Assembly: GCA_964291215.2 (NCBI GenBank)
Contig: OZ219790.1
Coordinates: 1,408,001-1,472,000, forward strand
Length of the DNA: 64,000 nucleotides
Direction of reading: 5' to 3'
From: Alphaproteobacteria bacterium
Lineage (GTDB): Bacteria > Pseudomonadota > Alphaproteobacteria > MPNO01 > UBA830
Shown: positions 6,920 through 60,469 of the stretch, piece after piece
Layout of the letters: every line of letters begins with the position of its first letter
How positions within the stretch are numbered: position 1 is the first letter of the stretch
Notes under the pieces: generated by a model
Seen by the model: only the letters and a program-made list of their open reading frames with translations
Told to the model about the DNA's origin: nothing
Databases searched by the model: none
Translations under genes and position numbers: made by a program

Positions 6920-7205
6920 GGACCGGTAAGTCGCTAACCGCGTCCCGCGCCGCCCGTGACGGCGGATTTTCCAACGTCTCCGGCAGCGCCCGCCTGTCGC
7001 GCCCGGAGAGCGTCGTGGTCTGATGCTCGCGCAGAATGCGTTTAGATTCCCTGGCCGCCGATGCCTGGACGAACGTCGTGAGGTTGACGCCGGTCAACTC
7101 GGCCGCCCGCGCAATGCGGTTCCTGTCGCTCGGCCTGACCCGCATCCCGATATTGTCGGTCGCCCTCTCCTCCGGGGACGCCGTGACATCGCTGAAGTTC
7201 AACAC
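6920..7205 (-). pseudogene. DUF1778 (TacA/AtaR-type) RHH antitoxin with a damaged C-terminus
   Basis: IGMRVRPSDRNRIARAAELTGVNLTTFVQASAARE...TTTLSGRDRRAL..LENPP. Confidence 0.8.
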
Positions 7206-25220: not shown

Positions 25221-25298
25221 TGGCGGGAGTGACGGGACTCGAACCCGCGGCCTCTGGCGTGACAGGCCAGCGCTCTAACCAAACTGAGCTACACCCCC
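25221..25298 (-). tRNA. tRNA-Asp (GTC)
   Basis: GGGGGTGTAGCTCAG...CCTGTCACG...GGTTCGAGTCCC...CCA. Confidence 0.96.
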
Positions 25299-34228: not shown

Positions 34229-34304
34229 TGGTGGGCGGTGACGGGATCGAACCGCCGACCTACGCGGTGTAAACGCGTCGCTCTCCCAGCTGAGCTAACC
34301 GCCC
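34229..34304 (-). tRNA. tRNA-Val (TAC)
   Basis: GGGCGGTTAGCTCAG...TTTACAC...GGTTCGATCCC...ACCA. Confidence 0.96.
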
Positions 34305-45653: not shown

Positions 45654-46148
45654 CTATCGGCCACCCGGTCGCGGGACGGCGTCCGGACGGCAGCGTTGTC
45701 GGAAACCGGGCGCGGCCGGACGCATGGCGACCGGCCACGGGAATTCCGGCGCTTGTGCGGCCCCGAACCGTGTGCAAGCCTTGATCGCGGGAACCGGTGT
45801 GGGCGGGACGGCAGGAGAGACGGGTCGTGACGAGCAGTTCCGCGCTTTTTCCTGCCGGCGCAGATTTTCAGCGGTGAGCGCTCCCCGCGAGGCGGCCGAC
45901 ATCACGCCATTGAACCGGCTGGCTATCTTCGCGGCCGGCTTCTTCAGTCTGAGCCAGATCCCGATGATGACGCTCATCGTGCCGCTGTGGGCGGCCGACA
46001 TCGGCGCCGGCCCGCTGTGGATCGGAATCGCGGTTTCGCTGCGCGCCGCCCTTGCGATGGTCTTTTCGATCCAGGCCGGCGCGCTGATGGACAGGCTCGG
46101 CACTGCCCGGGTCTGCAGCGTTCTCGGCGTGGCCGCCGCGCTGCTCGC

Positions 46149-47850
46149 GTCGGGTAGGCCGCTGGCGCGCGCATCCTTAGGCGGAGGCTTTATCCGTCAC
46201 CGCTCTTTCGATTGCGGGCGGGTTCGCAGAATCGCCATAGACCACGTTTCCAGCAGCCCCCCTAAAATTCCGTACGTCCGGTTTTCCCGGTTCAAGCATC
46301 AGGCACCCACTTGGAGTTCGGTGCGAAGCCTTCCCACGCCATGGTCAAGGTCGGGTAGGCCACTGGCGCGCGCATCCGTAGGCAGAGGCTTTGTCCGTCA
46401 CCGCTCTTTCGATTGCGGGCGGGGTCGCAGTTCTCCCATAGACCACGTTTCCAGCAGCCCCCCTAAAATTCCGTACGTCCGGTTTTCCCGGTTCAAGCAT
46501 CAGGCACCCACTTGGAGTTCGGTGCGGAGCCTTCCGCCGGACACGCCATGGTCAAGGCTGACCCAACCGTACCCACGGCATCTCCGAGCGTTTGCTCCGT
46601 CCTTCGACCTCGCGGCCTTTGTCGGTCGGTGCCAGTTTCTGAGCACTGGCGTTGACCTACCGCGGAACAGGCCACCTGAGCCCTGAGGTCCTCGCTCAGG
46701 ACGGGTTGTGTTGTCCCGCCCGTCAACGCTTAATCAACCTCATCCGCCAGTCAGGAGGACTCCGCGTCCTTTCCCGTTTCCCGGTTATGGACGCGGTCCT
46801 TGACATTCAAGGGTCACTTCATCCTGTCCGTCCTCCTCACCTTCCGATCTTTCACTGCTGTACTGTCCCGGATTGCCGCCGTCTCTACCACCGGGGAACC
46901 CGATGCGTGCTCTCCAGTTCTTCCGCATCGACGCTGGCCATCGGGCAGTCAGCAGGCCCTTGGCATTCCCGTTTACCCCACTAATCAGCTTCGTGTGGGA
47001 TGGTTATTTCGGGGCTTCATCCAATCGTTCGCTTTCGCTGCGGCCCTCCGGTTTGCTCGCCGCCCTGGCTGACCGAACCGGCTGGACACTGTGTTCCAGC
47101 CAGCCCACAACGGCTTTCTACGTCCCAGCTCGCTGATCCAGGGTCACCCCTGAACCAATGCTACGGCGCCAAACTGGAAATTGCGCCGGCGGGACTCGCA
47201 CCCGCAAGTACAGCATCTAGACTCGCTGCACGCTGACCCAACCATACCCACGGCATCTCCGAGCGTTTGCTCCGTCCTTCGGCCTTGCAGTCTGTCGGTC
47301 TGCGTACCGGCTTGACCTGCCGCATAGGCTACCTGAGCCCTGAGGTCCTCGCTCGGGACGGGTTGTGTTGTCCCGCCCCTTAGGCGACCTCATCCGCCAG
47401 TCAGGAGGACTCCGTGTCCTTTCCCGTCTCCCGGTTATAGACGCGGTCCTTGACGGGTCTCTTCATCCTGTCTGTCCTCCTCACCTTCCGGTCTTTCACT
47501 GCTGATCTGTCCCGAATTGCCGCCGTCTGTACCCCGGGGAACCCGATGCGTGTTCCTCAGTTCTTCCGCATCGACACTGGCCATCGGGTAGCAACCTTGG
47601 CGTTCGCCGTCTATCCCACAATCAGCTTCGTGTGGGTGGGGAATTTCGGGGCTTCCCGTTCGCTTTCGCCCTCCGGTTTGCTCGCCGCCCTGGCTGACCG
47701 GACCGGCTGGACATTGCGTTCCAGCCAGCCCACGACGGCTTTCTACGTCCCAGCTCGCTGATCCAGGGTCGCCCCTGAACCAATGCTACGGCGCCAAACT
47801 GAGAATTGCGGGACTTTCACCCGCAAGATCAGCAGCTAGACTCGCTGCAC
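46149..47850 (-). mobile_element. ORF-less group II intron, outer member of a twintron (46149-46349 plus 47232-47850, 820 nt)
   Basis: The minus strand begins GTGCAGCG and ends CCTACCCGAC. It has a DV/DVI-like gggaaaaccggacgtacggaattttagggggg, a precise insertion with no TSD and no RT ORF. Confidence 0.85.
46350..47231 (-). mobile_element. ORF-less group II intron, inner member of a twintron (882 nt)
   Basis: Same termini as the outer copy and colinear homology with it. It is inserted precisely at atggtcaag|gctgaccc. Confidence 0.87.
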
Positions 47851-48888
47851 GCTCGCCTATCCCCTGTGGCCCTCGATCAGCGGCCTGCTGCTGTTGCAGA
47901 CCCTCCTCGGCTTCCTGCACGTCACGTGCTGGATCGGCGCCCAGGCCATGATCGGCACCCTCGCCGGCGGCAACCCGGGGACCATGGGCCGCTTCACCTT
48001 CGTCACCACGCTCGGCACCTTCCTCGGCCCCCTCCTGGTCGGGCTGGTCTGGGAGTTTCTCGGACCGTGGGGCGCCTTCACGCTAGTGTCAGGCTGGTCG
48101 CTCGCCTTCGCCCTGACCGCAGCCGCGACCCCGCGCGCTGGCGGCGCCGCGTCCCGCGCGTCTGTCCGACCCGCGGACCTGGCCCCGAAATGGGCCGACT
48201 ACGCGGCCGGCTTCGGGCTTCTGCGGTCGCCGATCATCGCCTGCTTCATGGTGATCTCCGCCGCGCTTGCCGCCACCTACGCCATGCGCCACACCTTTCT
48301 TTCGGCCTTTCTCGACGGGATCGCGTTTCAGGGCACCGAGATCGGCATCATCTTCGGCTCAATGGCCCTTTCGGGCGGCATCGCGGGCCTGACAGTCGGC
48401 TATCTGTCGCGTTATGTCCGGCCGCACTGGCTCACGATAGCGGCGACCGTGCTCGGTGCCCTGAGTTTCTCGACCCTGCCCCTGTTTACGGGATTCTGGG
48501 CGCTGCTGGCCGTGTCCCTGGCAACCGGAATCTGCACGGGACTGGCCTTCCCGCTGGTCCTGTCGATCCTGACCCGGGAAATATCCATCGGCGACCAGGG
48601 GCTCAGCGCCGGACTGCGGTCCACGACCAACAGGACGGCATCGCTGACGATTCCGGTGATCATGGGGGCGGTGATCGCCGCCACCGACATAGCGTTTGGT
48701 TTCTTCGTCATGGGCGCCGTCGTCATATGCATCGTCGCGGCGCCGGTGCCGTTTCTCGTGCGCGCGCTCAGGCGCGCGAGCCATTCCTGAGACAGGACGC
48801 GCCGCTGGCGGCAGCACCCGCCGTTGACGTTTCGCCGGCACCCGACTAGCCTTCGGCTATCGCGTTCCAGGCGGCAGGGAGCACGGTC

Positions 48889-60382: not shown

Positions 60383-60469
60383 TGGTGCGGTCGAGAAGAC
60401 TCGAACTTCCACGGGATTTCTCCCACAGCGACCTCAACGCTGCGCGTCTACCAATTCCGCCACGACCGC
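60383..60469 (-). tRNA. tRNA-Leu (GAG)
   Basis: GCGGTCGTGGCGGAATTGGTAGACGC...TTGAGGT..., long variable arm, TTCGAG, CCA. Confidence 0.95.

Follow-up and report, generated by a model that had tools for sequence, protein, structure and literature searches.

Group II introns nested in other group II introns have been described before. In the account of the TeI3/TeI4 introns of Thermosynechococcus elongatus by Mohr, Ghanem and Lambowitz (2010, PMC2882425), six families are defined by their EBS, ORF-less members are moved in trans, twintrons formed in domain IV of siblings, and the action of the reverse transcriptase (RT) in trans was demonstrated. A review (PMC4424553) describes nests of up to five introns in Methanosarcina acetivorans, balanced by loss through homologous recombination, and calls ORF-less introns in bacteria rare. 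EBS-retargeted, nested introns are already known from these two organisms, and the self-targeting twintron reported below is a new example of a published mechanism; our literature searches on ORF-less class F nests and on self-insertion had nothing closer among the papers listed.

The window that we analysed is a stretch of 64,000 nt of genome G000 (G001 and G101-G105 are other genomes used for comparison). It holds two introns of one family, which we call family A, one inside the other and neither with an ORF (Table 1). As in T. elongatus (PMC2882425), near-identical group IIB scaffolds are split by EBS1, EBS2 and EBS3, members are ORF-less, siblings are homed into at domain IV and, in family A of G101, identical inner introns sit in diverged outer ones. 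The inner intron of the window fits the same description, that of an ORF-less intron homing by EBS pairing to a conserved site of a related intron. There are also differences. According to the same account, the IEP of T. elongatus is encoded by the outer intron, from which the ORF-less forms are derived, whereas both partners in G000 are ORF-less and the outer intron encodes no close IEP that could act in trans; among loci L021-L108 we found neither a family-A copy with an RT frame nor a close ORF-bearing parent of the family. Most other variants of family A, unlike the introns described from T. elongatus, home into a different intron family (RF02005 type, here family B), and the G000 copies are damaged.

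With M. acetivorans, as reviewed in PMC4424553, family A shares repeated site-specific homing into other group II introns, and the recombination loss described there matches nests in G105 whose heads have collapsed. The twintron of Trichodesmium erythraeum (Pfreundt and Hess 2015, PMC4649490) is likewise one group II intron in another within a protein gene, but its introns are described as both having ORFs, lying in sense to the gene and splicing in vivo, whereas the window pair is antisense to an MFS transporter gene. Because of this orientation the window twintron cannot be removed from the MFS mRNA. The nested introns of M. acetivorans treated by Dai and Zimmerly in 2003 reportedly have intron ORFs as their targets, to go by the title of that work, whereas those of family A are non-coding ribozyme sequence (domain IV, the domain V/VI junction and domain I). 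A further point concerns detection: RF00029 (domains V-VI) misses even intact family-A copies at E 0.01, so that surveys based on domain V, such as PMC8919778, may miss the family.

Table 1. Features of the twintron and its host gene (positions in the window)
Feature	Position	Strand	Remarks
Inner intron, ORF-less group IIB, family A variant v3, 882 nt	46350..47231	-	RF02003 match; 99% copy at G000:C2:128015, likewise nested
Outer intron, family A variant v1, 5' part: domains I-III and most of IV	47232..47850	-	7.8% substitutions from inner intron
Outer intron, 3' part: end of domain IV, damaged domain V, long domain VI	46149..46349	-	
Id3 hairpin of inner intron	46943..46959	-	EBS1 = 46947-46953; forms in predicted fold; covaries with 5' exons
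EBS2 of inner intron	47000..47006	-	pairs with exon -8..-14
EBS3 (G) of inner intron	46885	-	pairs with first 3'-exon base, 46349
IBS1 + IBS2, occupied target in domain IV of outer intron	47232..47245	-	14/14 paired
Empty target copy within inner intron	46548..46570	-	junction 46557/46556; mismatch 46569; 13/14 paired
Domain V of inner intron	46466..46496	-	lacks 7 nt of 5' strand including AGC triad
Domain V of outer intron	46265..46295	-	identical 7-nt loss
Remnant of outer EBS1 hairpin after 6-nt deletion	47587..47596	-	9/10 v1 copies deleted; G000:C2:153677 intact
EBS2 of outer intron	47637..47643	-	matches purine run at -10..-14 of outer exon
Host MFS transporter gene, split by twintron	45875..48790	+	start approximate; MFS_1 E 1.5e-11 on 3' part

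In G001, which is about 95% identical at the MFS locus, the gene is an uninterrupted frame of 406 aa in which the exons are joined directly and without duplication. Identical six bases stand on each side of the outer intron; a 6-nt target duplication was nevertheless ruled out, since the empty allele of G001 has both copies. At the gathering threshold Rfam finds no intron in the window. The two copies score 44.3 and 20.1 bits with RF02003 (group-II-D1D4-4), for which the cut-off is 49, the higher score being that of the inner intron (E 4e-8), while all six intact relatives scanned lie above the cut-off (56.6-68 bits). The inner intron begins with GUGCA, which we take to be a variant of the GUGYG-like group II 5' consensus, and its last two bases are AC, an A lying seven bases ahead of the terminus; its relatives share these ends. 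Intron ends, a domain I-IV scaffold and EBS1-IBS1, EBS2-IBS2 and EBS3-IBS3 pairing are all present, as expected of group IIB. An intact domain V with the catalytic triad is found in the relatives and is lacking in the window copies and in every full copy of G000. Judged by sequence, the window copies are damaged members of a family with group IIB traits. With regard to delta-delta', the base before EBS1 is U in ten of eleven aligned variants, among which no covarying partner was identified. Our reading of the predicted fold would place the target in domain IV. An origin of the target as the leftover end of an RT gene was considered and dropped, no frame being kept across four relatives. Elsewhere the window contains three tRNA genes on the minus strand (25224-25298, 34232-34304 and 60386-60469).

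A sequence-only reading of this DNA had singled out a hairpin (46943-46959), GUCAGC in the adjoining exon (47232-47237), a loop in the outer intron (47585-47597) and a second, empty site (46548-46568), and all four read as it gave them. It supposed the hairpin to be Id3/EBS1, and we agree, as the hairpin forms in the predicted fold and covaries with the 5' exons. EBS1 (46947-46953) pairs with exon positions -1 to -7, and EBS1, EBS2 and EBS3 together pair at 15 of 15 bases with the occupied site of the sibling. In G000 the last five exon bases precede a C or T at 6943 sites. Of these, 11 pair at 13 or 14 of 14 positions, and because all 11 lie in family-A copies the match of the guide is not due to chance. 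Five sibling sites that stand empty have the identical 14-mer, which scores 14 there. The unoccupied site within the inner intron was also taken for a copy of the same target. The site exists, but it differs from the occupied one at -13, one base beyond the range quoted, where an A.C mismatch (window 46569) falls in IBS2. The outer loop does contain GCU, as read, but it is no working short guide of 3 nt, since it is the remnant of a 6-nt deletion.

Whether such loops follow their exons was examined in relatives gathered with a domain V pattern (25 stretches from GTDB genomes and 13 from metagenomes) and by searches in G101-G105. This gave 70 parsed 5' ends, of which 59 with a full-length hairpin were kept and 11 with a deleted loop were dropped. 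In these 59 copies, representing 16 variants from several genomes, EBS1 pairs with its own exons at 5.75 of 6 positions, against 3.22 +/- 0.29 when exon sets are exchanged among variants. None of 10000 shuffles reached the observed pairing, and the same was true of EBS2 (18 variants, best 6-mer 5.07 against 3.46 shuffled); the variants are related, so that these P values are overstated, although the guide sequences differ widely. Registers of EBS1 shifted by one or two bases (four shifts) gave no signal, a one-base shift yielding 2.77 against 2.76. EBS3 pairs in 54 of 58 complete copies, with four different base combinations plus wobbles, and the four mismatches are all in G000 copies where a 6-nt deletion in the host took away the +1 base. 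EBS1 misfits its exon in two of the 59 copies, at the head-to-tail junction of L043 (1/6 paired) and in the chimeric L038 (3/6). The idea that near-identical scaffolds carry a retargetable guide loop is therefore borne out across 59 copies and 16 variants.

Family A is represented in G000 by 13 full and 7 partial copies, and the RT-encoding family B is far more numerous. Variants v1 and v2 sit at two sites in family-B introns; v1 is also found at three unrelated sites, one of them the MFS gene of the window. Variant v3 exists in two copies, and both sit in domain IV of v1 copies, as expected from the proposal that this variant lodges in its siblings. Divergence is 0.9% both between the two inner copies and between the two outer ones. 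Both v3 copies have their own site empty, with the A.C mismatch at -13. Two of seven perfect v3 targets and none of six with one mismatch are occupied, numbers too small for self-avoidance to be claimed. A search of 100 relatives of G000 turned up a single match, 42 nt long. Family-B introns also occur inside partial family-A copies (G000:C1:2335067 and C2:1604293), the families nesting in both directions, and several family-A copies are interrupted by insertions of 1-5 kb, several of these in or beside domain V/VI (G000:C2:97377, L042, L077, L081, L085).

Guides directed at siblings are aimed at three different sites in three genomes (G000, G101 and G105). The guide of G101 is aimed at the domain V/VI junction of family A, a site that is mismatched in the inner intron itself. 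At this junction six identical inner copies are found, in outer introns that differ by 4-39 substitutions and have different guides; identical inners in diverged hosts are as expected for recent separate insertions. The site sought by the guide of G105 lies earlier in domain IV, and the guide pairs at 7 of 7 positions with its own copy. Six loci of G105 are self-nests of introns about 98% identical; L080 combines one head with two tails and L076 two heads with three tails, the latter differing by 4-5 changes. L076 is probably a triple nest minus one lost head. Repeated stacking, and the triple nests in related assemblies that the sequence-only reading suggested looking for, thus find a probable example in a relative, but the 13 full and 7 partial copies of G000 include none. 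The copies in G101, G102 and G105 look intact in sequence. Several other arrangements were seen: two whole twintrons head to tail without a spacer, the 5' exon of the second mismatching the guide (L043/L044, G101:C2:3769211-3772762); a sibling lodged at yet another family-A site, the fourth, near position 188 in domain I, its head apparently collapsed into that of the host (L053 and L078, G105:C1); and a family-B intron that houses two variants of family A, 10 nt apart and unlike in their guides (L032/L095, G102:C4).

The G000 copies share their damage. All 13 full copies lack the same 7 nt of domain V including the triad, a region intact in the relatives; one apparently intact domain V string of G000 was discarded, as it lies in an unrelated gene. 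Nine of ten v1 copies lack the same 6 nt of the EBS1 hairpin. The tenth (G000:C2:153677) keeps a full EBS1, which pairs at 7 of 7 positions with eight v1 exons, that of the window included, and at 6 of 7 with two. At the three unrelated sites it pairs at 7/7, 6/7 and 6/7, for which the chance per site is 0.24% (7/7) and 2.8% (6/7). Since the exons fit the undeleted EBS1, the v1 copies were probably inserted with an intact guide that was lost later. The domain V loss is common to v1 and v3 even though these are 7.8% apart, about as far as from the intact copies of G101 (5.5-8.8%), and for this reason common descent is not an easy account of it. The sequence-only reading had this variant still able to invade its siblings. 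With domain V damaged in every full copy, this finds no support in G000, where family A is likely to be a fossil that has ceased to be mobile. A metagenomic family-A copy (L096, L100, L106) has a shortened EBS1 hairpin and an exon that fits the full guide, perhaps through a deletion of this type in a different organism.

As for a helper, none of the 82 RT loci of G000 is clearly intact; the best of their frames, of 374 aa, reaches 262.5 bits with TIGR04416, whose cut-off is 300. G102, G105 and G001 have a type of RT that belongs to introns with a comparably long domain VI, and of this type G000 has a decayed fragment only (51-54% identity). Nine of 18 RT matches in G101 were fetched; eight are family-B frames and one is without a frame, and these nine include no RT of the long-domain-VI type. 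The ORF-less family A may possibly borrow an RT across intron classes.

The deletions are part of a larger pattern. Repeat copies within G000 differ by 1364 distinct indels of up to 14 nt. Of these, 904 measure 5-7 nt, 179 measure 1 nt and 10 measure 4 nt; the lengths 5, 6 and 7 nt are each commoner than 1 nt, and events of 4 nt are rare. Deletions in bacterial pseudogenes, as described in PMC6054270, outnumber insertions, often lie between microhomologies and show some excess at 6 nt, but their sizes follow a power law with a bump at multiples of three, which is not the spectrum of G000. In 148 kb of single-copy DNA aligned with G001, 31 stretches of 5-7 nt are missing in G000 and one in G001. 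Repeats of G101, G102 and G105 have such indels in 1 of 17, 1 of 47 and 1 of 68 cases. The density of deletions rises from 0.25/kb in single-copy DNA, which is under selection, to 7.7/kb in elements of 6-20 copies and 11.8/kb above 20 copies, the last two classes comprising 7 and 5 alignments, mostly to a G101 element, while substitutions stay flat; the increase in high-copy elements is about 30- to 50-fold. Of 58 gap sites in 29 copies of family B, 48 are shared; pairs of gaps fail the four-gamete test more often (0.58-0.65) than pairs of substitutions (0.17-0.36). Examples from the window can be seen in the L113 alignments at G000:C1:1447318-1489119. A family-B site following the v1 target is intact in 6 cases, has lost 6 nt in 33 and has lost 11 nt in 17, the losses being successive deletions at one place between short repeats.

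What makes these deletions is a separate question. No strong sequence motif marks them in G000, and microhomology is mildly raised, being absent from 24-34% of cases against 49% at random. Ku-dependent end joining was ruled out as a source, there being no Ku in G000; mutS and recA have open frames. Loops of 5 nt or more may be too large for MutS to see, which would fit the lower edge at 5 nt. Taken at face value, the alignments suggest that G000 has a lineage-specific and unexplained excess of 5-7-nt deletions, which became common to repeat copies after insertion.

What has to be explained for the twintron is the pairing and its covariation, two nested copies, exact junctions without duplication, and the sequence missing from domain V and from the outer EBS1. 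Very probably, in our view, EBS1 of an ORF-less group IIB intron with three EBSs pairs with a domain IV site that is conserved within its own family, the intron having most likely retrohomed with an RT supplied in trans and its copies having most likely been disabled later by small deletions. A v2-like ancestor (3.6-4.6% away) would have been retargeted by guide mutation from a family-B intron to family A, changes in the three guide segments opening a site carried by every sibling. If established group II intron biology applies, the spliced intron RNA would pair with the DNA target through EBS1-3 and reverse-splice, and the IEP of another intron would make the cDNA. The EBS1 and domain V deletions would have spread among the copies after insertion, most probably through gene conversion over short tracts or through deletions that recurred at identical positions, either of which would fit.

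Several other readings can be set against this one. The twintron might have been made once and then copied as a unit or by recombination at the DNA level, in which case the second nest records no second homing. Such copying would suit the 0.9% that separates the inner copies, and likewise the outer ones, the mosaic deletion patterns that show exchange between copies, and the head-to-tail twintron pair of G101. But the outer copies lie at unrelated sites that each fit the intact v1 guide, and two deletions differ between them; the identical inners of G101 are in outers with different guides; and the match between guide and target would go unexplained, so that one homing event is still needed. 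We find this rather unlikely. That v3 is a live and strict self-targeter, still stacking in its own copies within G000, seems to us hardly credible. Its own site does pair at 13 of 14 positions plus EBS3, a 98% identical relative in G105 pairs at 7 of 7 with its own site and occupies it in six loci, and L076 of G105 has three different 3' tails. Against this, in G000 the triad is missing from domain V in 13 of 13 copies, none of the 82 RT loci is clearly intact, no stack is seen, and none of six one-mismatch sites is occupied as against two of seven perfect ones, too few to test.

The remaining alternatives concern the order and the reality of the deletions. If the deletions came first, damaged copies would have stayed mobile with another intron providing domain V, or the entire reaction, in trans; in vitro, domain V is able to act in this way, sharing by 13 of 13 copies is explained most simply by descent, and four copies stand directly before a host deletion, as if inserted afterwards. 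This order is very unlikely, however, given that copies with a deleted EBS1 sit at sites fitting the undeleted guide, that the deletion markers show all four gametes, that G000 is without any intact family-A domain V, and that the G000 variants do not form one clade apart from the intact G101 copies in a tree of moderate support. The 5-7-nt deletions, those in domain V and the outer loop included, might also be artefacts of assembly or polishing, the introns being intact in the cell. They are known from one assembly only and are densest in repeats, where assembly is hardest, but single-copy DNA is affected too (31 against 1 in 148 kb), the mosaic patterns are specific to copies and have an echo at 11-13 nt, the repeats of three other assemblies lack them, and we know of no assembly error of 5-7 nt. 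An artefact is thus improbable, though a little less so than deletions before insertion.

Returning to homing by a retargeted guide followed by decay, we see two kinds of interest in it. Sixteen guide variants on one scaffold of 860-890 nt, three of them aimed at their own family, form a natural panel on which it could be tested whether an ORF-less intron can work with an RT from another class of introns, and whether mismatches to the own site evolve in self-targeters; such mismatches are present in G000 and G101 and not in G105. The deletion spectrum, if real, matters more than the twintron. One speculative suggestion, which we hold tentatively and consider somewhat doubtful, is a deletion ratchet directed at repeats: deletions of 5-7 nt would arise genome-wide and be copied preferentially between copies, until one lethal lesion (in domain V or EBS1, or an RT frameshift) drives a whole element family extinct, the victim here being a non-autonomous intron lineage that lived on another intron class and repeatedly re-aimed its guide at itself. 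If true, this would be a bacterial counterpart of fungal RIP, and a deletion density rising with copy number would, if real, be an undescribed route to the extinction of mobile elements; our literature searches on the 5-7-nt pattern had nothing like it among the papers listed.

Two observations on the repeat content of G000 may be added. Repeated DNA is contained in about 38% of the sampled 1-kb tiles (118 of 308), and there are at least 378 matches to one transposase, many of them in pieces.
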